From Octopus vulgaris (taxonomy: Eukaryota), in contig OX597816.1 in the NCBI GenBank assembly GCA_951406725.2, positions 78,058,001-78,122,000 on the forward strand: a stretch of DNA of 64,000 bases. The letters run 5' to 3'. Positions 113 through 57,879 of this stretch are shown here, in pieces. Position numbers and translations under genes: made by a program. Position 1 is the first letter of the stretch; each line of letters starts with the position of its first letter. The notes under the pieces are model-generated. The model made no database searches. It was not told where the DNA came from and saw only the letters and a program-made list of their open reading frames with translations.

Positions 113-667
113 CGGTGTAACAGCTCAGAATATACCCCTGCCCAGACTATACCCCCAAGCTTGCAGGCAAATAACGCAAATGTACCTCACTAAAAAAGTT
201 GCATCCGAACATTTATAAAATTTGGTATTACACAATGGAGAATTAAAAGTTTCGATTTAAACATAGCAATTTAGAATTATCAATATAAAGCTACACGAAT
301 GGCTACATTTGCGCGTGTCTGGCTGAGACTCATAGCACAGGTGGGCTGCGCAGCATGCGCGAGTTGTCAGTTATTTTCTAATCTACTTTTACATCGGGTT
401 TATATTGATACATTGAGTATTTGCATTTGATAATTCGAAATTGCTATGTTTAAATCGAAATTTACATGTAACTTTTAATCCTTCATCGAATGATATCAAA
501 TTTTAAATATGTTCTGAAGCAACTTTTATAAGCGAGGCACATCTGTGTTATTTGTACGCGAGCATGGGGTATAGTCTAGACAGGGATGTATTCTGGGCTG
601 GCTGGCTAGCTCCGTGTATAGTCTGGGCAGGGGTATATTCTGGGCTGTTACAGCAGTCGTAACACCG
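113..667. mobile_element. Foldback/MITE-like non-autonomous DNA element (long imperfect palindrome)
   Basis: 116-152 is the reverse complement of 616-652 (1 mismatch), with a second arm copy at 566-600. Internal 250-283 is the reverse complement of 428-460. No ORF. Confidence 0.7.
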
Positions 668-1275: not shown

Positions 1276-1615
1276 TATGTGTGTGCGTACGTGTATGCAT
1301 GCGTGTGTGAAAAATGTGTATGTCACTATATATACATGTATGTGAACGAGTGTACGCATCTACTTATATATCTCCCTTTTAATTTCCACCCTAAGCGCAT
1401 GCGTATATCTACATACGTTTTTCTATTTTGGGATAGAACTTTCCATAACTATTAACATAAACCATCTCACTCATAACGCCTATACGTTCTGAAGATGTAA
1501 CTTTCCCAAATAAAGTGCACTGCATATTCAAGTCCCTGATGAAACTATAGGATATTATCCTGGTACTCAAATAAGCGTCCACCACATCTTATAGCAGAAA
1601 GATATATATATATAA

Positions 1616-1886
1616 CAATTGCAGCGTGGAAGGTGTTTTTAAGCCATTTAAGAAACACACAAAATCCGTTAGATTCACTTCAACATTTAAATTTAATTTG
1701 TCAAAATATTTTCGTTGCTTTGAGGCCGCGACCTGTTCACTGACACAAATTAAATTTAAATGTTGAAGTGAATCTAACGGATTTTGTGTGTCTCTTAAAT
1801 GGCTTATAAACACCTTCCACGCGGCAATTGGTTTCGTTCCAGCACACGATCTCAGATCAGGTCACTTGCTACGCAAGTACATCTCC

Positions 1887-1888
<2 letters not shown>
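1616..1888 (-). mobile_element. Short hairpin element in (TA)n, probably PLE-derived and non-autonomous
   Basis: ~88-bp inverted arms 1616-1703 and 1741-1829, (TA)n on both sides, hammerhead motif in the loop. Confidence 0.65.
1699..1745 (-). ncRNA. Minimal type-I hammerhead ribozyme motif, G3-C8 core variant
   Basis: Minus strand reads UGUCA GUGAACA G GUCGC-ggccucaaa-GCAAC GAAA AUAU UU UGACA: stem I, core, stem II, GAAA, palindromic AAUAUU, UH. Confidence 0.6.
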
Positions 1889-1929
<41 letters not shown>

Positions 1930-13235: not shown

Positions 13236-13310
13236 TATACTATAAAATTGGATTTAATCCTAAATCTAATTTTTCCCTGTAAGTTTGGATTTATTCCCTA
13301 ATATTATTAT

Positions 13311-13364
<54 letters not shown>

Positions 13365-14109
13365 AAAAACAAGTCAAGATAGAAAATGCTAAAATAATTT
13401 TATAAAGAACATTTCAGTACCGGTTTCAGTCATTTGAGACCTTTTCAACTGTAACGATTAAATAATTATATTTAGAAAAATTGAAAGAAAAGTTTTTTAA
13501 AAGAATATTTGTATAGTGTTCAAATATAAGTGGCATTTTCCTTGTTTCTGCCTTTCTCTGTCTCTCTTGTGTACACTTGTGGGTTCGAGGTCGTTGTGAA
13601 TTCTTGGTAGGGAAGAAGAACAAGAAGGATGAGAAGAAGGGGGGGAGGGAGAATTTGGGAGTGCCTTGATTGTTGTATTTTGAGTGGTCAGTGGCGGCTA
13701 GCAGTTGCTGTTCAATTCATGAGAATATTTCTATTGAAAGGTTTGTTTATAGAATTTGCGTTGGTGTTATACTAAAAAGCATTAGTGATAAAGTTAGGAA
13801 GTAGAAGGGGGAGAAGAAGAAGAAGAAGATGATGATGATGATGATGATGATGATGACGACGACGACGACGACGACGATGAAGAAGAAGAAGAAGAAGAAG
13901 AAGAAGAAGAAGAAGAAGAAGAAGAAGAAGAAGAAGAAGAAGAAGAAGAAGAAGAAGCCTCCTAAAACACCACACCCGAATATGGGATATCAGGACGCAC
14001 TTCTCAATACTGTTCCAAGAACACACACCATAAATCACAACAGGGCACCCCACATCAACAAGGAACAACTATATAATAGCTACCGTCCCAACCACTGCAA
14101 TCATTTTTT

Positions 14110-16378
14110 AGACCCAATACGCAAACACAGAGACACAAGATAGCACCAAACAGGCAGGAGGAACCAAAAATGATAAAAATTATCAATCTAACTCACAAGG
14201 AACTAACAGCAAGCCAAATAAATATACTCTCCAACGGACTCAAGTTTACACCCACCCCACAACACCCCAACTACAATGAAATGAAAGAAGACATCGCAGA
14301 ATTCTGTAGAAAATTACGACTTACTGAGGAACAATACGACAAATACAACGAGGACGAATCGTTGGTCAGAAATAGGAGTAACTACACTCCCTCAAAAGGT
14401 AAGAACAAAACACTTGATCATTTCTGTGAACACATCTCGAATTACCCATATCAACATATGCACAAACAAAAACACAAACCAAACTTCAGCAAAAAAGAAT
14501 GGGCTGAGCTGAAAAAATCAAAAAATGACAAAACAATTACAATCAAAGAGGCCGATAAAGGGAGTGCAGTTGTTTTAATGGACACGACATTTTACATAAC
14601 TTTAGTACTATCTATGTTGGAAGACACAACATATGAAAAGGCACAAAACTACAGTCAACAAAAAATAATGAGGGAACTAAAATCCATGTTAAACCCATAC
14701 AAAGAAGGGCTCACCGACAAAGAATATGACTATATGACCAATTTCACAAGTAAAACCGGCCAATTCTATGGTATTCCTAAGATACACAAAAGTGAGAAAA
14801 TAAGTAGCAGGTCTCGCATGCGAAACCCACCGCCTCAGTAATTTTTTAGACACCCTGTTAAAACCACTCCTCAAACATGTCAAAAGCTCTATAAGGGACG
14901 ACCTGGATATGCTCAATCACCTACCTAATACTATAAACAAAAACACCCTACTAGTATCCTTCGATGTAGTCAACCTCTATTCCAATATCCCCCACAACCT
15001 AGGAATAGAGGCAATTCAATTCTGGCTAGAGAATCACGCCAACGAACTCCCACATCGCATCAAAAAAGAATTCGTGATAGAAGGGGTTAAATTCATCCTG
15101 GAAAATAACTTCTTCGCCTTCAAAGACAACTTCTACCGACAAAAATCGGGGACTGCGATGGGTGCGCGAATGGCCCTCCTCCTTTGCCAACCTAGTCATG
15201 GGATATCTAGAAATCAGTCTGTATCGCAAGGTTCTAGAAAGATATGGCAGCCCTTTCTCCCTCTACATAGAAAACAACTGGAAGAGATACCTAGATGACT
15301 GTTTCATTCTTTGGCATGAAAATATAGGGAAACTCAAAGAATTACAAGCAATTTTAAATGGACTGGACGTAAACATCCAATTCACGATGGAATATAGCCA
15401 GCAACAACTCCCCTTCCTCGACATCCTCATTAAGAAATCTAATAATGTAATAGAAACAGATATATACTATAAGCCTACAGATTCTAAGCAATATCTTCCA
15501 TTCAATTCATGCCACCCCAGACATACCAGAATGAATATCCCCTTCAATCTGGCAAAAAGGATATGTACTATAGTTTCTAATGCAAACACCAGAGATACAC
15601 GACTACAAGAACTAAAAGATACCCTCATCACCAGGAACTACCCACCTTCACTTATTGACATATGCATTCAACGTGACCTTCAACTCAACATCCAGGAACT
15701 GAGACATCCCAAATTAAAGAAAAATTTACGACCAAAAGCCTTACCATACATCTCCACACACAACCCTCTCAACAATGAAGCCTTCGACACCATCCTCCAA
15801 AATATACCCCTGCTAAAAAAAAAGACCACAGAATGAACATAATCTTCCAAACACACACGATCATAAAAAGCAAGAGACAGCCTAAATCTATAAAAAGTCT
15901 CCTAACACAAGCCCGAATATGCTCATCAACACAGAAGCCGACAGTAAAAAAATGTGGAAGACCCAATTGCGGGATATGCGATTATCTAATTGAGGGATCA
16001 GTGTTCTCCTTCAAACAGGGACAACGGTTCACAGTGAAAAGCAACTTCACATGTACTTCGGAGAACCTGATATACACACTAACCTGCTCTGTATGTCAAG
16101 AGCAATACATAGGCCAAACAAAAAATAGTTTGCGTAAAAGAATGGCCCTGCACAGATCCCAGATAAAAATTCCCCAAAACAGAAAAATAGCATTCAGCCA
16201 ACACATAGATATTTGCGCCAACAACAAAACACCAAGCTTCAGGATTTTCCCCCTCTACCAATTCAGGGACGATACAACCTCGAGCCAACGAATAAGTGAA
16301 GAAACTCTCTTTATTACAAAATACAGGCGCCTGAACGGGTCTACGACAAACGATATATCCACCTCGGCTTTAGAATAA
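14110..16378 (+). pseudogene. PLE reverse transcriptase + GIY-YIG endonuclease, frameshifted
   Basis: GLKFTPTP, ADKG, FDVVNLY, GTAMG, RYLDD, LPFLD, SCHP, CxxxxCxxC linker and NLIY..CxxC..YIGQT, spread over 4 ORF pieces. Confidence 0.93.
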
Positions 16379-16973
16379 CACAAATACACACGCAAATATT
16401 ACATCCCTTAGAATCCATTAAAAATCAGCCCCAATCACAGCTATAACCCATAACGTGCCAACTTTAGGTCATACAACACCTCACTACTTCCACTCATTCA
16501 TATTATCTCTTCTCTTTCTTCTTCTTCTTCTTCTTCTTCTTCATCATCATCATCATTATCATCATCATCATCGTCATCGTCATCATCATCATCATCATCA
16601 TCATCTTCTTCTTCTTCTTCTCCCCCTTCTACTTCCTAACTTTATCACTAATGCTTTTTAGTGTAACACCTACGCAAACTCTATAAACAAACCTTTCAAT
16701 AGAAATATTCTCATGAATTGAACAGCAACTGCTAGCCGCCACTGACCACTCAAAGTACAACAATCAAGGCACTCCCAAATTCTCCCTCCCCCTTCTTCTC
16801 ATCCTTCTTGTTCTTCTTCCCTACCAAGAATTCACAATAACCTCGAACCCACTAGTGTACACAAGAGAGACAGAGAAAGGCAGAAACAAGGAAAATGCCA
16901 CTTATATTTGAACACTATACAAATATTCTTTTAAAAAAAACTTTTCTTTTAATTTTTCTATATTTAATTGTTA

Positions 16974-17010
16974 CAGTTGAAAAGGTCTCAAATGACTGAA
17001 ACCGGTACTG
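16974..17010 (+). ncRNA. Minimal hammerhead motif in pseudo-LTR, U3-A8 variant; inverted copy at 13415-13451
   Basis: CAG TTGAAAA GGTC-tcaaat-GACT GAAA CCGG TA CTG. Confidence 0.6.
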
Positions 17011-17060
17011 AAATGTTCTTTATAAAATTATTTTAGCATTTTCTATCTTGACTTGTTTTT

Positions 17061-17165
<105 letters not shown>

Positions 17166-17215
17166 TTAGGGAATAAATCCAAACTTACAGGGAAAAATTA
17201 GATTTAGGATTAAAT

Positions 17216-17460
17216 CCCCGCTAGGTAACGGGGACATAAACACACCAGCATCGGTTGTCAAGCAATGCTAGGGGGACAAGCACACACGAATATATATATA
17301 TATATACATATATACGACGGGCTTCTTTCAGTTTCCGTCCACCAAATCCACTCACAAGGCTTTGGTTGGCCCGAGGCTATAGTAGAAGACACTTGCCCAA
17401 GGTGCCACGCAGTGGGACTGAACCCGGAACCATGTGGCTGGTAAACAAGCTACTTACCAC

Positions 17461-18839: not shown

Positions 18840-18887
<48 letters not shown>

Positions 18888-19693
18888 TCAATAAATGGTG
18901 GGGTTGTGTTGACCGCACGTGGAGAAATGATAAGTAAGGAAAAATTTTTTTAAAAATGCAGAATGCTCAAATGAAAGAAAATTTTAATAAAATGAGAAAT
19001 TGATAAAATATATAAATATATATTTATTCAACCGGTTTTCGTCATTGTATGACTTGTCAAGAATATTTATGTTTTAAAAAGTTTTTTTTTAAATTAGAAA
19101 GGGGAAAAAAAGAAAATTGCATTGTTTTTTGTAAAAGAATAATGATAAAAATGTACAAAAATTAAAAAATAAGTTCTCCGATACATTGTGAGTTCGTTGT
19201 GTATCTTGAGTTTTATGGTTGTTTACGAAAAAATTACCTTGAGGTGTTAAGATCCAAAGGGATTAAGAGCAGGTGTTGTGTTGTTAAATTCAGCATGTTT
19301 GCAGGACAGGAAGTAGTAGTAATTGTGGTCCTGGTTCTTCAGTTCCTGTGTTGTGAGTAAGGGGAGACAACTCTTTTGAGTTCTTCAATAAAACCCAAAT
19401 TATAAAATTATCATTTTAGCTTCATTTGCGTTATCTTTTTTATATAATTGCTTGTTAACTTAACTTTCAGATTTTAACACTTTATTTATATTATTTTCTA
19501 ATTATATAAATCTGCATAGACAATTGCATTTCAAATTGTCATATCATTTATAATAAAAATGATAGTAATAACAACAATAGTAAAAATGATATTTAAAGAA
19601 TATAAGTTTTAGCTTGAAGTGATGAATGCATGGTATCTTTATATATTTGTGTTAGTCCATCCATGAAGAGTGAGGTAGAGAAAGGAAGTTTGA

Positions 19694-20286
19694 TCAACGA
19701 GGAGTTTGCATATTAAGTTGTGTTTGGAATTTTTCAATAAAGAGATTCTCCTTGTTAATTCTCTCCTGTGTGGTGATCCCGTCTTTACATTGGTAGAAGG
19801 GGAATATATAGAATTTGGGGTTTAAGTCTTTAGCACATGAGTCTAAGTGGTCACTCAGTGGAATTTGTCGGTATTCCGGGAGATTTATTTGTTCTTTATG
19901 CACCGTTACTCGTTTACGTAACGGGAGACTCGTTTGTCCAACATAATTATGTTGGCAACCAGCGCATGTGAGAACGTAGATAAGGTTCTCGGAGGAACAG
20001 GAGAAGTTAGTCTTGATTTTAAACTTCGTACCTTGTTTGAAGGTAAATTCAGAGCCTTCAAGTAGAAAGGGGCAGGTACCACAGTTTGAGCGTGCACATT
20101 TTTTTACTGTTGGGGGTGGATGTGGTGTGTGAAGTTTGGCATTTGTCAAGAGTTTTTTAAAGATTTGTGTTGCCTTTTGCATTTGAGGATTTTGTGTGTA
20201 TTTATAATGTTTTTCATTTTTGGGTCTGTTGACAGTAGACTGAGGTTTTGTATGATTGTGGTGTATGCTTCGATATTTTTGGGGTT
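19694..20286 (-). pseudogene. Inverted duplicate of the PLE2 GIY-YIG coding segment
   Basis: Translation identical to the C-terminus of the 23403-24602 ORF. Confidence 0.92.
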
Positions 20287-20842
20287 TCAGATTTTATAAT
20301 TTGGGTTTTATTGAAGAACTCAAAAGAGTTGTCTCCCCTTACTCACAACACAGGAACTGAAGAACCAGGACCACAATTACTACTACTTCCTGTCCTGCAA
20401 ACATGCTGAATTTAACAACACAACACCTGCTCTTAATCCCTTTGGATCTTAACACCTCAAGGTAATTTTTTCGTAAACAACCATAAAACTCAAGATACAC
20501 AACGAACTCACAATGTATCGGAGAACTTATTTTTTAATTTTTGTACATTTTTATCATTATTCTTTTACAAAAAACAATGCAATTTTCTTTTTTTCCCCTT
20601 TCTAATTTAAAAAAAAACTTTTTAAAACATAAATATTCTTGACAAGTCATACAATGACGAAAACCGGTTGAATAAATATATATTTATATATTTTATCAAT
20701 TTCTCATTTTATTAAAATTTTCTTTCATTTGAGCATTCTGCATTTAAAAAAAATTTTTTCCTTACTTATCATTTCTCCACGTGCGGTCAACACAACCCCA
20801 CCATTTATTGATCTGTACCCTCTACCACACGTGTGATTCAGA

Positions 20843-22334
20843 ATGCCTCCGAAAAACAAGAGCACTCTTACAGAGACAGTCACCAATAAGACCATTCTAA
20901 AAGAACTCAAAGTACTCAATACACATCTACTTACATTCTCCAAAAAAATTGACGAACTTCTCCATCAATCCCGGGACAACTCAGAAAACAACCATCATCA
21001 ACAACTTTCGGATAAAATTGATGTAAACCTAAACGAAATCAACACTACACTGAAAACTCTACTTTCGGATAAGATAGATGTAAACCTAAATGAAATCAAC
21101 ACTACACTGAAAACTCTACTTACCAATTCAACGCCAAAGAGACCTCAGACACCACTCAACACACAGAAAGAACACACTTCAACCCCAGCACAACGCATTA
21201 AAAACCAGATCATCACTACTTGGACTAAGAAACTACACAACAGAAAACTTCTCTTCTGGAACATGCTCAAAAACCAAAACAAAGCTGAAATTTACGACAA
21301 ATGGTTAAACTCCTCCCCTATCATACTACCCCAAAAATTCCAAATCAAACACATCCCAAACGAACCTGAAAAACAACGCTCCCTAAGAGAAAAACTAACA
21401 TTGGAAAAATTAAAACCGAAGTAGAACTTCTAAAACTCAGAGCACAAAACCACGAACAAAAATACACAAAAATAGACGATGAGATACTTCTAGAACTAAC
21501 CTCACACACCAACGAACAGCCCCTCGAACTTGTTATTAAACTATGGAAAGATGAATGTGAAAAGGAAGAACGAACCTCCCTTAAACGCTGGGAAAACAAC
21601 AAAGATTTCTTCCTCAACTATGAAACACAATTCATATTAAACCATAAATCCAAAAACCCATTCATAAAAGTACCCACAACACAGACTTCCACTGTACCCC
21701 ATAAACACCATTCCAAACCGCACCTCAAATACACATACTCTCCAAACCCCCTCCTAACAGGACACAACCTCCCCCAACCATATAAAAAACCTTTTCCCTC
21801 CCGAAACATCTCAAACAAGACCCACCACAAAACCTGGTTTTCCAATCACTCTAACACCCCTCCCCCACCGATTAGAACCTTCAAGAACCTCCCATACACT
21901 AGAAATTATCCCCCCTCAAGGCTCCCCTCCCTCACACTAATAACAAACAAGGCATCCTACCCACACCGATACATATAATACCCACCCAACGAACCCCCTA
22001 TAGTCCACCCATCCAACAACCACATTCCTACCACATCTCCTACAGATCTCCAAACCCTCACATCCCATACGAACCCAATCACCACAACTACATACCCCCC
22101 TACATCCCCCCATACAATCTACCAGACACACACCCACAAACCCATCGCATTTCTCACAAATCCTTACACCATCGCATCCCATACCAACACAAATACGACA
22201 ACTACCTACCCCCCTCCAACCTCCCCACCCAAAAACACTCCTACACATACAACCAGAACTTTAACAAAGAATACACCCCTTACCTCAACAACCATTTTTT
22301 AGACAGAGGGGAAAAATACAAACACCACCGCTAA
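20843..22334 (+). pseudogene. PLE2 upstream ORF1: helical/coiled-coil N-half and Pro/His/Tyr-rich C-half (~495 aa, two frameshifts near 21410 and 21905-21975)
   Basis: Three long overlapping open frames from ATG 20843 to TAA 22332-22334; 19-aa tandem duplication LSDKIDVNLNEINTTLKTL. Confidence 0.7.
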
Positions 22335-24602
22335 CACAGACCCAAAATAATAAAACAAAAATTATAAACCTCTCCTGCAAAACACTGACACCAACCCAAA
22401 TCAACATCCTAGCAAGAGGTTTGAAATTCACACCCACCCCAAGAACACCCAACCCAAGGATGACGTTTCTGAATTCTGCAGAAAACTTCGCCTAACAGAA
22501 GCTTTGACAGATATCAACAATGGGGACGATTCATTGATCAGAAATAAAAGCAACTTCCTACCACCAAAAGGGAGAAATAAAACACTGGACGATTTCTGCA
22601 AACACATCCAGAGTCTCCCCTTTACCCCAAGCAAAACCAAGGTAAAATCCAATTTCAGTAAGGAAGAATGGGAAAACCTACGTGACATACAACTGGATAA
22701 AAACCTCACCATCAAAGAAGCGGACAAAGGGAGTGCTGTGGTCCTTATGGACACGGAATTTTATAAACACCTAGTGTTTTCCATGCTTAACAATAACATT
22801 TTCTATGAGGTTATTAACAACTACAAACAGCAAAAAACAATCAGAAACCTCACCACACTCATACGCCAACACGGTCAGGGACTCACAGAAAAAGAAAGGG
22901 ATTATATCACCATCTTCAAATGCAAGCCCAGCCTTTTTTATGGCCTTCCTAAAATCCATAAAAACAAATACATCACCAAAGCCTGCAAACTCTCCACTGA
23001 CATCCACATCAACATCAAAGCACCGGAGGACCTAAAACTAAGGCCCATCGTGGCTGGTACCTCCTGTGAAACACACCGCCTGAGTAACTTCCTAGACATC
23101 CTTTTGAAACCTTTCCTTACCCACATCAAAAGTTTCATTAGGGATGATCTGGACATGCTCAAACACCTCCCGAAAACAGTTAACGAGGAGGCACTCCTGG
23201 TATCCTTTGATGTCATCAACCTCTACACCAACATTCCACATGAGTATGGTATAGAGGCAATTGACTTCTGGCTAGAAAAACACCCAGAGACATTCCCTGA
23301 CCGCATTAACAAGTCTTTTATTACAGAATCTCTCAAGTTCATTCTGACAAACAATTTTTTCTCTTCGACGACACACACTACCGTCAAAAATGTGGCATTG
23401 CGATGGGTACCAAGGCTGCACCAGTCCTTGCGAACCTCATAATGGGTTACTTCGAACTGTCACTCTATGAAATATCAAGCCAGAAATTTGGACATGTTTT
23501 CCACACCTACCTAATGGAAAACTGGAAAAGGTATTTAGATGATTGTTTCATCATATGGAAAGAACCTTATGAAAAACTCCTGGAATTCAAAACCATACTA
23601 AACAACATACATCCCAACATCCAATTCACTATGGAATTAAGCAAACATCATCTCCCATTCCTTGATCTCCTAATTATAAAAACACCTAAGAACCAAATCA
23701 TAACAGACATCTACCACAAACCTACAGACTCACAACAATACCTCCTCTTTAGTTCATGCCACCCAAAACACACCAAGACAAATATCCCTTTCAATTTAGC
23801 TAAAAGGGTATGCACCATTGTCTCGGATCCAAAAACACGAGAAATACGCCTTCAAGACCTCAAAAAAACACTATTACAACGTCAATATCCCTCCACCCTT
23901 ATAGAGTATGGAATAAAACGCGCCAAAGAACTAGACAACACTACACTGAAAACCACCCAACCTAACACCACACACAACCTCAAAATACTTCCATACATTT
24001 CCACCCACAACCCCAAAAATATCGAAGCATACACCACAATCATACAAAACCTCAGTCTACTGTCAACAGACCCAAAAATGAAAAACATTATAAATACACA
24101 CAAAATCCTCAAATGCAAAAGGCAACACAAATCTTTAAAAAAACTCTTGACAAATGCCAAACTTCACACACCACATCCACCCCCAACAGTAAAAAAATGT
24201 GCACGCTCAAACTGTGGTACCTGCCCCTTTCTACTTGAAGGCTCTGAATTTACCTTCAAACAAGGTACGAAGTTTAAAATCAAGACTAACTTCTCCTGTT
24301 CCTCCGAGAACCTTATCTACGTTCTCACATGCGCTGGTTGCCAACATAATTATGTTGGACAAACGAGTCTCCCGTTACGTAAACGAGTAACGGTGCATAA
24401 AGAACAAATAAATCTCCCGGAATACCGACAAATTCCACTGAGTGACCACTTAGACTCATGTGCTAAAGACTTAAACCCCAAATTCTATATATTCCCCTTC
24501 TACCAATGTAAAGACGGGATCACCACACAGGAGAGAATTAACAAGGAGAATCTCTTTATTGAAAAATTCCAAACACAACTTAATATGCAAACTCCTCGTT
24601 GA
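22301..24602 (+). pseudogene. PLE2 RT + GIY-YIG ORF (indels near 22455 and 23360)
   Basis: IINLS, GLKFTPTP, ADKG, YGLPKIHK, LRPIV, FDVINLY, AMG, RYLDD, CARSNCGTC, NLIY..CAGC..YVGQT. Confidence 0.95.
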
Positions 24603-25229
24603 TCAAACTTCCTTTCTCTACCTCACTCTTCATGGATGGACTAACACAAATATATAAAGATACCATGCATTCATCACTTCAAGCTAAAACTTATATTCTT
24701 TAAATATCATTTTTACTATTGTTGTTATTACTATCATTTTTATTATAAATGATATGACAATTTGAAATGCAATTGTCTATGCAGATTTATATAATTAGAA
24801 AATAATATAAATAAAGTGTTAAAATCTGAAAGTTAAGTTAACAAGCAATTATATAAAAAAGATAACGCAAATGAAGCTAAAATGATAATTTTATAATTTG
24901 GGTTTTATTGAAGAACTCAAAAGAGTTGTCTCCCCTTACTCACAACACAGGAACTGAAGAACCAGGACCACAATTACTACTACTTCCTGTCCTGCAAACA
25001 TGCTGAATTTAACAACACAACACCTGCTCTTAATCCCTTTGGATCTTAACACCTCAAGGTAATTTTTTCGTAAACAACCATAAAACTCAAGATACACAAC
25101 GAACTCACAATGTATCGGAGAACTTATTTTTTAATTTTTGTACATTTTTATCATTATTCTTTTACAAAAAACAATGCAATTTTCTTTTTTTCCCCTTTCT
25201 AATTTTTAAAAAACTTTTTAAAACATAAA

Positions 25230-25270
25230 TATTCTTGACAAGTCATACAATGACGAAAACCGGTTGAATA
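25230..25270 (+). ncRNA. Minimal hammerhead motif, U3-A8 variant; identical copies at 20634-20674 (+) and 19025-19065 (-)
   Basis: TATTC TTGACAA GTCAT-aca-ATGAC GAAA ACCGG TT GAATA. Confidence 0.65.
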
Positions 25271-25358
25271 AATATATATTTATATATTTTATCAATTTCT
25301 CATTTTATTAAAATTTTCTTTCATTTGAGCATTCTGTATTTTTTAAAAAATGTTTCCT

Positions 25359-25419
<61 letters not shown>

Positions 25420-46677: not shown

Positions 46678-46836
46678 ACGCAGGAGTGGCTGAGTGGTAA
46701 GTAGCTTGCTAACCAACCACATGGTTCCGGGTTCAATCCCGCTGCGTGGCATCTTGGGCAAGTGTCTTCTGCTATAGCCCCGGGCCGACCAATGCCTTGT
46801 GAGTGGATTTGGAAGACGGAAACTGAAAGAAGCCTG

Positions 46837-46840
<4 letters not shown>
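46678..46840 (+). mobile_element. SINE 5' half (49592 family)
   Basis: gcaggagtggctgagtggtaag...ggttcaatccc...cttgggcaagtg. Confidence 0.85.
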
Positions 46841-46872
<32 letters not shown>

Positions 46873-46877
<5 letters not shown>

Positions 46878-48570
46878 GCCGAATGTTGACCCAACAGAGG
46901 GACCAGCAATCCGAGTTGACAGTTCCTTAGTAGATAAGGCAATTAAAAGCATGAAAACAGGGAAAGCCCCAGGCCCATCAGGAATTACTGCAGAGATGCT
47001 CAAAATATCTGGTAGTGTCGGCTATAGCCTAGTCACCCGTATAGTTAACCAGGTGATACACGAAGGAGTCATTCCCAATGACTGGTGTAGCAGCATAATA
47101 GTCAACTGCTACAAAGGTAAAGGTGACGCCCTAGATACAAATAACTACAGGGGTATCAAGCTGCTGGATCAGGTAATGAAGGTTACGGAGAGGGCTATAG
47201 CCCAACTAATTAGAGAGAGAGTTAGCCTAGATCAGATGCAGTTTGGGTTCGTGCCAGGGAAAAGTACTACTGATGCTATTTTCATGGTAAGACAGCTGCA
47301 AGAGAAATACCTAGCCAAAGACAAGCCCATATACCTGGCTTTTGTTGATATGGAGAAAGCCTTCGACAGGGTCCCCCGATCCCTCATCTGGTGGTCAATG
47401 AGGAAACTAGGGATAGATGAATGGTTAGTGAAAGCTGTACAAGCCATGTACAGAGACACTGCTAGTAAGGTGAGGGTTGGCACCGAGTACAGTGAAGAAT
47501 TCAGGGTAGAGGTTGGGGTCCACCAAGGTTCAGTCCTCAGTCCCCTCCTATTTATCATAGTCCTCCAGGCAATAACGGAGGAATTCAAGACAGGATGCCC
47601 CTGGGAGCTCCTCTATGCTGATGACCTTGCTCTAATTGCTGAGTCTCTATCAGAACTAGAGGAGAAGTTTCAGGTATGGAAACAAGGTTTAGAATCGAAG
47701 GGCCTTAGAATCAACCTAGCCAAAACCAAAGTCCTAATAAGTAGGAAGGTAGACCAATCACAAACGCCTTCAGGTAGATGGCCCTGCTCGATCTGTAGAA
47801 AAGGTGTAGGTAGAAACTCTATAAGATGCACCAAGTGTAAGCTATGGACACATAAGAGGTGCAGCAATGTCAAAGGAAGGCTAACTAGGAAGATGGTTTT
47901 TGTCTGTGGCAGATGCTCAGGAACAATTAACACTGAAAATGCTCTGAGACCAACTTTCGTCACTTTCCAGGGAGAAAAGCTAGAAGTAGTTGATAGTTTC
48001 CGTTACCTAGGTGACCAAGTCAGTAGCGGGGGCGGGTGCGCTGAAAGTATAACTGCTAGAGTAAGAATAGCCTGGGCAAAGTTTAGAGAGCTCTTACCCC
48101 TGCTGGTGACAAAAGGCCTCTCGCTCAAAGTAAAAGGCAGACTGTATGATGCATGTGTACGTACAGCCATGCTACATGGTAGTGAAACTTGGGCTGTGAC
48201 TGCTGAGGATTTGCGTAAGCTCGCAAGAAATGAAGCTAGTATGCTCCGATGGATGTGTAACGTCAGTGTTCATAATCGACAGAGTGTAAGTACCTTGAGA
48301 GAAAAGTTGAACCTAAGAAGCATCAGTTGTTGTGTGCAAGAGAGACGTATGCGCTGGTATGGTCATGTGATGAGAATGGCTGAAGATAGTTGTGTGCGAA
48401 AGTGCCACACCCTGGCAGTTGAGGGGACCTGTGGAAGAGGTAGACCCAGGAAAACCTGGGTCGAGGCGGTGAAGCACGACCTTCGAACTTTAGGTCTCAC
48501 CAAGGAAATGACCAGTGACCGAGACCTTTGGAGGTATGCTGTGCGTGAGAAAACCCGGCAAGACCAGTGA
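46873..48570 (+). CDS. RTE ORF2 remnant: RT with embedded PHD-type zinc finger, uninterrupted for ~565 codons, no start codon or APE domain
   Basis: GKAPGPSG, NYRGIKLL, QFGF, FVDMEKAFD, GVHQGSVLSP, LYADD, FRYLG, HGSETW, RWYGHV, GRGRPRKTW; CxxC...CxxC...HxxC...CxxC. Confidence 0.9.
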
Positions 48571-48617: not shown

Positions 48618-49390
48618 GGGCCCCCGTGCAGGTGACACGTAAAAGTACCATCCGTTCGTAGCCGTTTGCCAGCCCTGTCTGGCCCCCATGTCGGTGGCAC
48701 GTAAAAGCACCATCCGTTCGTGTTCGTTGCCAGCCTGGCCTGGCCCCCGTGCCAGTGACACGTAAAAGCACCATCCGTTTGTGGCCGTTTGCCAGCTCTG
48801 TCTGGCCCCCATGCCGGTGAAACGTAAAAGCACCATCCGTTCGTGGCCGTTTGCCAGCTCTGTCTGGCCCCCGTGCCGGTGACACGTAAAAGCACCATCC
48901 GTTCGTGGCCATTTGCCAGCCCTGTCTGGCCCCCATGTCGGTGACATGTAAAAGCACCATCCGTTCGTGTCCGTTTGCCAGCCCTGCCTGGCCCCCATGT
49001 CGGTGACATGTAAAAGCACCATCCGTTCGTGTCCGTTGCCAGCCTCGCCTGGCCCCCGTGCCGGTGACACGTAAAAGCACCATCCGTTCGTGGCCGTTTG
49101 CCAGCCCTGTCTGGCCCCCGTGTCGGTGGCATGTAAAAGCACCATCCGTTCGTGCCCGTTGCCAGCCTCGCCTGGCCCCCGTGCCGGTGACACGTAAAAG
49201 CACCATCCGTTTCGTGGCCGTTTGCCAGCTCTGTCTGGCCCCCGTGTTGGTGGCACGTAAAAGCACCATCCGTTCGTGTCCGTTGCCAGCCTCGCCTGGC
49301 CCCGTGCCGGTGACACGTAAAAGCACCATCCGTTCGTGGCCGTTTGCCAGCTCTGTCTGGCACCTGTGCAGGTGGCACGTAAAAAGCACC
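48618..49390 (+). repeat. Tandem array of ~61-bp units (~12-13 copies) in the RTE 3'UTR
   Basis: Unit ggcccccgtgccggtgacacgtaaaagcaccatccgttcgtggccgtttgccagctctgtct with two subtypes. Confidence 0.95.
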
Positions 49391-49546
49391 CACTACACTC
49401 ACGGAGTGGTTGGCGTTAGGAAGGGCATCCAGCCGTAGAAACACTGCCAGATCTGACTGGGCCTGATGAAGCCTTCCAGCTTCACAGACCCCAGTTGAAC
49501 CGTCCAACCCATGCTAGCATGGAGAACGGACGCTAAATGATGATGA

Positions 49547-54858: not shown

Positions 54859-55094
54859 TATATCAGTTGGATAGAGTTAAAACATGGTCTGGTTTTCACA
54901 TTTTTTTAAAATACCATAATAAAAACGTGAAAACCAGACCAAGCTTTAACTTTATTGAACTGATATAATATTCTATACACATTTACACAAATTTGGAAAA
55001 AATATTTATACACACACACATATGTATATATATATAAGGATGCATATATGTTTATATGTACATATACTTAAAAGTTGTGACCTCAGGCATGACT

Positions 55095-55940
55095 ATTTTA
55101 CTTTTATTTGTTTCAGTCATTTGATTGCTGCCATGCTGGAGCACTGCCTTTAGTCGATCAAATCAACCCCAGGACTCAGTCTTTGTAAGCCTAGTACTTA
55201 TTCTATCAATCTCTTTTGCCAAACTGCTAAGTTACAGGGACGTAAATATACCAGTATCAGCTGTCAAGCAATGGTGGGGGGGGACAAACACAGACACACA
55301 CAAAACAAGAGAGAAGATGGAATACGGCATTCAACCAGTCTAATCTTGGATATTTTTATCCCCCTGAGGTTCATATCCTCATTTGTACCTTGATCTGCAT
55401 TATATATATATATAAATTGGGCTTCTTTCAGTTTCCATCTATCAAATCTACTCATACAGCTTTGGCTGGCCCAAGGCTCTAGAAGAAGGCACTTGCTCAA
55501 GGTGTCACGCAATGGGACTGAACGTAGAACCATGTGGTTCGTAAGCAAGCTACTTACCACACATCCACTCCTGTGTCTGTGTATAGAAAGTTTATTTCCC
55601 TACCACATGACTTTGGATTCAGTCCCACCACATGGTATCTTGAACAAGTGCCTTGTACTATAGCTCTAAGCTGACCAAAGCTTTGTGAGTGGATTTGATA
55701 GATGGAAACTGAAAAGAATCCTGTCATGTGTGTGTGTGTGTGTCTTTTCACACTTGTGCCCCACCACTGCTTGACAACTGGTATTGGTTTGTTTACATTC
55801 CTGTAACTTAGCGTTTTAGCAAAAAGAAACTGATACAATAAGTACCAGGCTTAAAAAAAAATAAACACTGGGCTCGATTTGTTTGACAAAATCCTTCAAG
55901 GTGGTGCCCCAGCATAGCCACAGTAACTGAAACAAGGAAA
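55095..55940. mobile_element. Head-to-head pair of decayed SINEs (minus 55095-55575, plus ~55580-55940)
   Basis: Both match the 49592 family in opposite orientation. Confidence 0.75.
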
Positions 55941-57879
55941 ATAACAGATATAAATGGAAGGAGACAGTTATCTTTGTATGTGATAGATGCACGGGGACAA
56001 TAAGCACTAAAGACACAAGGGAATAAGATTTTCTCAAATACCTAAGAGGCTCTTTTGAGGTTGTAACAGTTTCTGTTACCAAGCTGATCAAATTAGCAGT
56101 GGATAAGGGTGTTCTGAAAGTATTGTTGCTAGAATAAATTTGAATGGTGGAAGTTCTGAGAGCTATTACCTCTGTTGGCAACAAAATGATTCTCTCAGAG
56201 TGAAAAGCAGATTGTATGCTGTTTGTGTACAAATGGCTATGCTCCGTGGTAATGAAACTTGGGCTTACATGCAGAGGACATGTGAAGACTGGTAAAAATC
56301 ATTATTTAGTTAGAGGAGAGCAATAACTATGATCTTTGCAGTTCTTCCCAGATAGTTCTAGGAATAAAAGTTTGAAATTTTAGTGCAGGTTTGGTGGAGG
56401 TGATTAAATAGGTGTATCAAGTGAACCCGAGCAGATGTGGTGTATAGCTTGCTAGTTCTGAAATGAAGAGGCCCTTAAAAATTAGTAGATGAAGTTTGAG
56501 AAGAAATAGCACATCTGTTGACTAGTGGTTCTAACCATGTTGATGAGAAAATCTCAGTCAAGAATCACTTGGGATTTTTTTTCTTAAGATGGCGTTAGGA
56601 AGGGCATCCAGCCGTAGAAACACTGCCAGATTTGACTGGGCCTGATGAAGCCTTCTGGCTTCACAGACCCCAGTAGAACCGTCCAACCCATGCTAGCATG
56701 GAAAACGGACGCTAAACGATGATGATGATGCTTTAATAGATTTTAACATGTTGGTGTGCTTAGCAGCTTCAGTATTGTATGTCTGAGTGGTATGCTAATA
56801 AGGGTCACAATTGAGCTTTGCACTGATTTACTAACCCATCAAGATTATAGTATTTTCTAATTTTTAAGAAACCTGGTTGTCTTTAAGGTATAGTTTGGCA
56901 ACATTATGCAAATGAAACAACAATGAGATTTCAGAGACTTTGTTGCCTGGCATTTGCAATTACTCAAATTTTGAGAAAGAGAGAGAGTCTTAGTACTATT
57001 GAAGAGAAGTCATGCACTCATTGAAGAATGTTTTCTAAGTGTCTGTTCATGATGGTTCTCATGCAAAATAGGAGGATATTTTTGATGTCTGTTCTGGCTT
57101 CAGGTAGAAATATCTAACACTTTATGCTGTTCACTTTGTTAATAATAAAGATTTTTGGCTTTGTCTGAAATGTTGGCTGTTTTATCTTGTAACATATTAA
57201 CATGTCAAACTTATTTATTTTTACTTTTCCTGGCCTCCTTTCCTATAATACACTAACATATAAATAGCTGCAAAAATTTAAATAATATTACTTAACTCTC
57301 TCACATGGCAATATATATATTTCTAATGTAATATGCTGCCTGTATGTATCACAGTAGGTAATAAAAAAAATAACCACAAATATTAAAAGGCATTGGTAAA
57401 CTTTTTGTTTTTCATTATTCAACTGGTGTTTTGAATATTAAAAATAAAACAATTCATTATAAAACTAAAACCTTCCACAATAATTCCATATAATTCAAAA
57501 CAGTACATTTTGAATTATATGAAATTATTGTGGAAGTATATGTTTGTGATTGTGTATTGGGCAAACATTTAGAGATATATGTATATAGTGATCCAGCATA
57601 TGAATCACAGTTTAATTTTGCTGAAACTACAAAAATGATTTTTGACAATGAATCAAAATGCAAAGACATCATTTTAAGATTAAGCACATGTTGCCTTTCT
57701 GAACCAAGCAGTAGAACATAAATACATTAAATCTCATGGGTTGAATGGGTAGTCATGAACCAAGTCAGTTCTTATTTGGAGTTAATGCTCTACTAAATGG
57801 TTCAGAGTTTGTTTTCTATCGCTGGATTACCTCCCAAGTGTTACAGAATATATTGTTACAGGCTGATGCTAGTACTGCC

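Follow-up and report, generated by a model that had tools for sequence, protein, structure and literature searches.

Head-to-head front ends of a Penelope-like element carrying a hammerhead motif with a swapped 3-8 pair in the genome of Octopus vulgaris

INTRODUCTION

The pLTRs of EN+ Penelope-like elements (PLEs), such as D. virilis Penelope, Adineta Pen2a and the anole PAc, are described as containing a hammerhead motif together with the first codons of the ORF, and their insertions as having an optional tail at one end, an inverted 5'-truncated copy, duplications of ~10 bp and (TA)n targets (PMC3846280, PMC8557442). The Penelope pLTR also contains an intron (PMC2377424). For the anole PLE it has been reported that in vitro reverse transcription starts at two internal sites, which define the tail, that both strands are extended and that uncut RNA is the main template (PMC11167929). 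The minimal metazoan PLE hammerheads have a short stem I, an extra base (consensus H) between positions 9 and 10.1, a G10.1-C11.1 pair and a palindromic helix III; they are mostly single dispersed motifs, in some cases opposite-strand pairs, and their activity as dimers is known to be low (Cervera and De la Pena 2014, PMC4209133). At positions 3 and 8 the same source reports C3-G8 and U3-A8, whereas PMC3088659 reports only U3-A8 as a natural variant and PMC3884650 mentions G3-C8 as an engineered one. The engineered double change C3G/G8C partially rescues cleavage of the anole PLE ribozyme (PMC11167929). Finally, non-LTR retrozymes are tandem units with PLE-related, type I minimal hammerheads (10.64898/2026.07.22.740005).

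Here we describe an octopus family that shares with the EN+ PLEs both the composition of the pLTR and all of the above insertion features. Unlike them, it has a tail of 59 nt instead of the usual 30-40, thousands of pLTR-only insertions with one fixed 5' end, and a G3-C8 core. Its hammerhead agrees with the minimal PLE motifs in structure and in dispersed occurrence, but carries G3-C8 at the variable pair and G, as do its sister families, at the extra base. The swap is the same as in the engineered anole mutant, except that the octopus has it naturally, as the fixed state of a lineage with thousands of copies. The non-LTR retrozymes have the same type of hammerhead and the same relationship to PLEs, but the octopus copies are single or head-to-head pLTRs that include the start of an ORF.

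RESULTS

The insertion in the window

The window is the whole analysed stretch of 64,000 nucleotides, to which unprefixed coordinates refer; it comes from a 2.8-Gb animal genome that is rich in microsatellites. BLAST of the full natural unit of the family against the locus returned two matches on opposite strands, which together define the insertion as a head-to-head pair of PLE pLTRs (1614..1889), 90-91% identical to the parent copy L242. It lies in a (TA)n target, with flanks at 1602..1613 on the left and 1890..1929 on the right; a target-site duplication is indistinguishable within this microsatellite. One pLTR copy (1614..1747, minus strand) bears the hammerhead and has the short 3' end without tail. 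The other (1745..1889, plus strand) is inverted and 5'-truncated, begins just beyond the predicted cut site, and ends in a PLE 'tail' (1831..1889, plus strand), which BLAST finds in this arm only and which is known from PMC11167929 and PMC8557442. The plus-strand copy also contains the first 30 codons of the parent ORF (1799..1888, ATG at 1799), and in loci L248 and L250 the same frame enters the RT ORF.

The near-perfect long inverted repeat that had drawn attention to the locus is real: 83 of 86 bases agree between its arms (1616-1701 and 1745-1830), and the fold has a z-score of -21.9, none of 200 shuffles being equally stable. The earlier note had placed the element at 1616-1829; the hairpin stands, whereas the true insertion, 1614-1889, is longer because the plus-strand arm runs on through the 59-nt tail. 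The locus is thus the back-to-back front ends of a Penelope-type element, one among thousands of copies in the genome.

Six other foldback hairpins in the window (121-600, 1944-2215, 2687-2851, 54859-54967, 55426-55714 and 57472-57536) contain no hammerhead by our relaxed scan and may be further PLE pairs or MITEs. The window also holds a 621-codon non-LTR RT frame (46705-48570, minus strand) with an adjoining tandem array of 62-nt units (48619-49406).

The hammerhead motif of the window copy

The motif is a minimal type I hammerhead at 1699..1745, with stems, core and GAAA read on the minus strand. Here the 5' strand of stem I (1745-1741) is followed by G3 (1740), C8 (1735), A9 (1734), stem II (GUCGC 1732-1728, GCAAC 1718-1714), GAAA (1713-1710), the palindrome AAUAUU and U17 (1704). 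By hammerhead numbering, cleavage is predicted after U17 (1703..1704, minus strand). Re-reading of the coordinates confirmed the core, the GAAA, the palindrome and a cut near 1704, all of which the earlier note had recognised, and AAUAUU agrees with its description of a dimer-type helix III in a minimal PLE-type hammerhead. An extra G (1733) between A9 and G10.1 was absent from that account. The strands of stem II were given correctly, but they include one C.A mismatch: the family has GCGAC where the window copy has GCAAC, so that a perfect 5-bp stem is one pair shorter here. In the predicted fold, stem II forms within the hairpin with a probability of only 0.008. Stem I is 5 bp in the window copy and 7 bp in the parent. 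Judged by its sequence, the ribozyme of the window copy is probably disabled, a dead passenger.

Compared with the minimal PLE hammerhead, the parent motif has stems I and II, G10.1-C11.1, GAAA, a palindromic helix III and UH, the window copy departing from this by its one stem II mismatch. Positions 3 and 8 pair, as G-C in the family and as C-G or U-G in its relatives; the base between 9 and 10.1 is G rather than H. It had been anticipated that standard searches would miss such a motif, and they do: the core departs from CUGANGA, and the Rfam hammerhead models gave no match in the window at the gathering threshold and none in the parent pLTR at E up to 10. A relaxed scan, written after the motif had been seen, matched four times in the window; over 100 shuffles it averaged 0.01 matches, with a maximum of 1.

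The parent element

Some copies retain sequence upstream of the unit, and its 386 exact matches led to copies fused to a GIY-YIG domain. A protein search gave 134 matches; among the best 30 of these loci, a G3-C8 copy adjoins the ORF in 29 and an A3-U8 copy in one. The parent ORF takes its first 30 codons from the last 90 nt of the unit, and the unit continues into the ORF in L248, L250, L260, L261 and L265. In L242, an inverted arm of 3 kb is followed by a broken ORF between two pLTRs and then by a tail; this is the layout of the window insertion at a larger scale. From its sequence, the parent is to be read as an autonomous RT + GIY-YIG Penelope-like element, opened and closed by the 208-nt unit.

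The ORF of L239 has RT motifs recognised by eye and a Pfam GIY-YIG domain (25.6 bits, cut-off 22.6). The Pfam RVT_1 search of the parent ORF gave no match, and none of the ORF loci inspected has an intact full-length ORF. Among named proteins, an RT-domain protein with the label Octopus vulgaris is the closest (59%). The features of C-terminal EN+ PLEs are present: a single ORF with RT, as read by eye, followed by GIY-YIG (L239), flanking pLTRs with hammerhead and first codons (L242, L248, L250), a tail at one end with an inverted 5'-truncated copy (19/19 pairs; long copies L239 and L242-L245) and a target-site duplication (8/19 pairs). Before the endonuclease, at residue 862 of the L239 translation, there is a CX3CxxC linker, which falls within the CX2-5CxxC defined for Neptune and Nematis in PMC8557442; by this sequence feature, the parent would fit either of them. 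The parent departs from the Hydra clade, which lacks CCHH and has a CxCX5C linker: its linker is a different one and, by eye, C/C/H/H residues are present, although its RWR and DKS are similar to the RWK and DKT of Hydra. In the PMC8557442 supplement, the first residues of the parent had no match, and two of the four octopus places were seen to be Naiads. The parent is barely alignable to the two PLEs inside the window. As to its 3' UTR of 1 kb, this holds (TACA)n microsatellites (L242:8540-9480) and ends in a branch-point and acceptor-like sequence exactly at the inferred start site.

Copy number and the state of positions 3 and 8

Exact matches to a 32-mer of the core number 1,223 in the genome, or 1,389 if positions 3, 7 and 8 are left free, and an 18-mer with G3 and C8 has 6,805 exact occurrences as opposed to none for the reversed control; such counts are inflated, since one hairpin copy is carried within the arms of another repeat. 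Position 8 alone differs in 434 cases, position 3 alone in 219 and both in 65. G3-C8 is therefore the master state and no quirk of the window copy, and the search for copies proposed in the earlier note shows the core to be conserved across thousands of them. The inflating repeat has inverted arms of 2-2.4 kb with one family hairpin inside (L061:1043-8490, L062:2838-6983), and about half of 30 loci chosen by the 32-mer have this same junction and these flanks.

Examination of 63 of the 65 double variants yielded 19 family members and 44 other sequences; C3-G8 was found in none of these 19 family matches and in none of three in a further set. Unpaired G3.G8 accounts for 34 of the first 100 of the 434 position-8 variants, i.e. 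~150 copies (95% range 110-189), and the mirror change for 12 of the first 100 of the 219 position-3 variants, i.e. ~26 copies (95% range 15-43). Consequently, a mispaired lineage has also spread, and it may be an intermediate of the flip. Its copies have on average 6.7 differences (n=15) versus 3 in G3-C8 copies (n=176), a weak hint at greater age in a sample biased to young G3-C8 copies. Among 215 distinct copies, subfamily changes inside the motif are found in loop II, except for one stem I wobble and CpG decay. The family unit is also present in contigs of public runs under four organism labels, together with a few ORF contigs; neither strand, start, splice joint nor cut can be read from these contigs.

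Sister families and covariation

The scaffold recurs in related families with a C3-G8 or U3-G8 core. In the 44 non-family matches, the 3-8 combination is C-G in 12, U-G in 21, U-A in three, A-U in two and unpaired in six. One sister, L241, is an autonomous PLE with a 1,312-codon frame that is 51% identical to the parent over the C-terminal query and 35% identical to its N-terminal 182 aa (E 3e-32). It has C3-G8, a compensatory pair in stem II and the same tail layout as the parent. With C3-G8 or U3-G8 present in this homologous autonomous PLE and in related families, the G3-C8 swap represents natural covariation. In an alignment of 21 rows, the 3-8 pair is kept in all rows (G-C 5, C-G 7, U-G 9) and 86.7% of cells pair, compared to 31-50% in slid controls. 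The rows were hand-picked, are related to each other and were retrieved with a pattern in which many columns are fixed, so the alignment is support rather than proof. Within this limit, the compensatory nature of the G3-C8 pair, as first supposed, is supported by pairing in 21/21 chosen rows across related families, and in stem II L241 supplies a compensating pair.

Several observations on the relatives are worth pointing out. In L241, C replaces A at hammerhead position 9 in both pLTRs (L241:7884-7938), and the ORF contains an asparagine-rich insert. The older sister families (L066-L130) are more often U3-G8 than C3-G8 (21 vs 12 of 44), a frequency that suggests a wobble pair in some master lineage. 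The window itself contains a long PLE (18844-25419) with ORF pieces at 20837-24602 (plus strand) and U3-A8 hammerheads at +20639, +25235 and -19060; it lies in (TA)n and has a 1.4-kb inverted arm with the same one-arm tail asymmetry. A second, broken PLE (13250-17217) has an inverted arm, ORF pieces at 14080-16378 and, near 16980, a core of the U3-A8 type with stem II closed by G.U.

Architecture of the copies

The 208-nt unit stops at either of two fixed 3' ends, one near position 150 and one near 208 (59 nt apart). Its arrangement was recorded in 40 consecutive loci on C1 from the 18-mer list; seven others, all one-tail pairs, were skipped. The 40 loci comprise 19 head-to-head pairs, 20 copies that are single within 350 bases and one partial tandem, so the tandem hammerhead units of non-LTR retrozymes are not the rule here. 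Exactly one arm has the tail in all 19 pairs (p 2e-6 under independence), whereas two pairs outside this set, L029 and L056, have no tail arm. The start points of the arm, and with them the inner junction, range over unit positions 3 to 99. This variable junction and the asymmetric ends differ from the symmetric, fixed terminal inverted repeats of MITEs. The family has target-site duplications of 9-13 bp; in eight of the 19 pairs one of 10-13 bp is resolved outside microsatellite, and the remaining 11 border (TA)n on one or both sides. A junction near the cut site characterises the 30 loci that were picked for likeness to the window, but only one of the 19 unbiased pairs. The long stem is a by-product of insertion with variable junctions, and the true stem I has 5-7 bp. 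Some insertions (L124, L126, L263, L013) are complex and multi-copy, with repeated template switches among pLTR pieces, and there is no PLE ORF between the same-strand pattern pairs that lie a few kb apart in L063, L086 and L201.

The 5' ends

We counted by eye the first 100 of 1,289 matches that reach the 5' end of the unit. The parent upstream sequence is kept in 29, while in 42 a G stands in place of the parent's C or T and the flank beyond it is unrelated; the rest have C (18), T (3), A (3) or GG instead of AG (5). The excess of G remains after removal of 12 cases explained by the arm (p 4e-12); in some loci (L301, L286-L288) the extra G belongs to the target duplication or to the arm. For full-length L1, such an extra G has been described as coming from the cap (PMC11702581). 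Also by eye, copies starting exactly at the cut site number ~48 in the first 100 of 103 matches, those starting one base after it 13 in the first 100 of 210 (~27) and those starting one base before it ~27 of 94. Cleaved RNA would thus be a rare template at best, given that starts at the cut site show no more than a slight enrichment. The small excess could even stem from TG microhomology and (TA)n flanks.

DISCUSSION

One tail per pair and the fixed extra G point to two-site priming on capped, uncut sense RNA. In the scheme that we propose, transcription would start ~23 nt upstream of G3, the extra 5' G would copy the cap, and the RT would have run to the cap through the uncut hammerhead. The enzyme of the element would use both strands of a staggered nick to prime reverse transcription, and two internal start sites on the capped, uncut sense RNA would give one tailed and one short cDNA. 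These two short cDNAs would then be joined head to head, likely via microhomology. Two cDNAs, one per site, joined in this way would explain why each pair has a single tail, why there are duplications and why the junction varies. In the window, we infer that the join used stem I of the ribozyme, whose complementary strands offer microhomology; this would be why the core caps a long stem and why stem I looks 88 bp long. The parent G3-C8 motif is predicted to cleave weakly, as a dimer or with the help of a protein, so most templates would escape cleavage. Taken together, we consider it likely that the locus is a PLE pLTR pair with G3-C8, primed at two sites on both strands of the nick and joined by microhomology. 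One detail may differ: as the parent upstream sequence resembles a branch point and a 3' splice site, there may be a tiny spliced first exon instead of a start ~23 nt upstream of G3.

The inverted pairs might owe their origin not to two cDNAs but to a single one that folded back, or to self-priming on an antisense template. Antisense self-priming has been proposed for rotifer Penelope (PMC3846280), and the pair junctions often have short palindromes or microhomology. However, neither route alone explains the one tail per pair in 19/19 or the fixed 5' end of the sense strand with its extra G, and we regard them as rather improbable. Much further down the scale is the idea of an independent, non-coding retrozyme whose 88-bp stem I functions in RNA, which is close to what the earlier note proposed. 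The core does cap a very stable hairpin, most copies are short and lack an RT, and the preprint 10.64898/2026.07.22.740005 derives animal retrozymes from pLTRs. Yet the junction and stem length vary between copies, 20 of 40 loci lack an adjacent inverted arm, tandem arrays are absent and the unit consists of its parent's pLTR and ORF start, all of which contradict such an element. Thus, the small non-coding retrozyme gives way to a pLTR with the first 30 codons of an autonomous PLE, its tandem organisation to one partial tandem in 40 loci, and the 88-bp stem I to two cDNA copies joined head to head at varying points. The high copy number, the inverted arms and the TA-rich targets would also suit a foldback DNA transposon or MITE whose loop is hammerhead-like by chance, but we find this the least credible of all: the two ends differ, the centre varies from copy to copy, the motif shows covariation between families, and the unit is contiguous with an RT-EN ORF, its run into the parent ORF contradicting this origin.

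Whether the ribozyme works is a separate matter. The parent G3-C8 motif is likely still able to cut, although U17 and the short stem I suggest low activity. The spread of G3.G8 copies and the C at position 9 of L241 mean that the ribozyme may be dispensable. The origin from a PLE would be the same if the G3-C8 motif were a catalytically dead relic, conserved because of a promoter, RNA-binding or recent expansion. The ~150 G3.G8 copies, the extra base G instead of the consensus H, the lack of a clear accumulation of 5' ends where the cut is predicted and the finding that hammerhead mutants leave in vitro insertion of the anole PLE unaffected (PMC11167929) all speak for a relic. On the other hand, selection on the fold predicts both the restored Watson-Crick 3-8 pair of the dominant lineage and the retention of stems I and II and the self-complementary helix III across families whose ORFs are ~50% identical, which makes a relic possible but unlikely. 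The bolder reading, which we hold to be speculative and on balance doubtful, is that the lineage flipped its 3-8 pair from C-G to G-C via G3.G8, that the flipped ribozyme is active and that the hairpins record two-site priming on capped sense RNA, settling the polarity of the template.

The class of EN+ PLEs, the kind of element and the inverted layout are already known. In the literature searched, including the parts seen of PMC6765202 and PMC6155905, there was no natural G3-C8 hammerhead and no octopus hammerhead; the novelty of the former is provisional, because the PLE variants of Lunse 2017 lie outside this search. With the same proviso, two things appear to be new: a lineage of several thousand copies, next to canonical sisters, in which G3-C8 is fixed, and traces in the genome of two-site priming on capped sense templates. 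If active, the family would provide a natural G3-C8 hammerhead, otherwise met only as an engineered rescue mutant, and standard descriptors would be missing whole PLE families. The canonical sister, the flipped family and the mispaired intermediate, all within one genome, offer a test of selection for cleavage. As regards the origin of the inverted pLTRs and tails, the single tail per pair and the extra 5' G favour both-strand priming on capped sense RNA.
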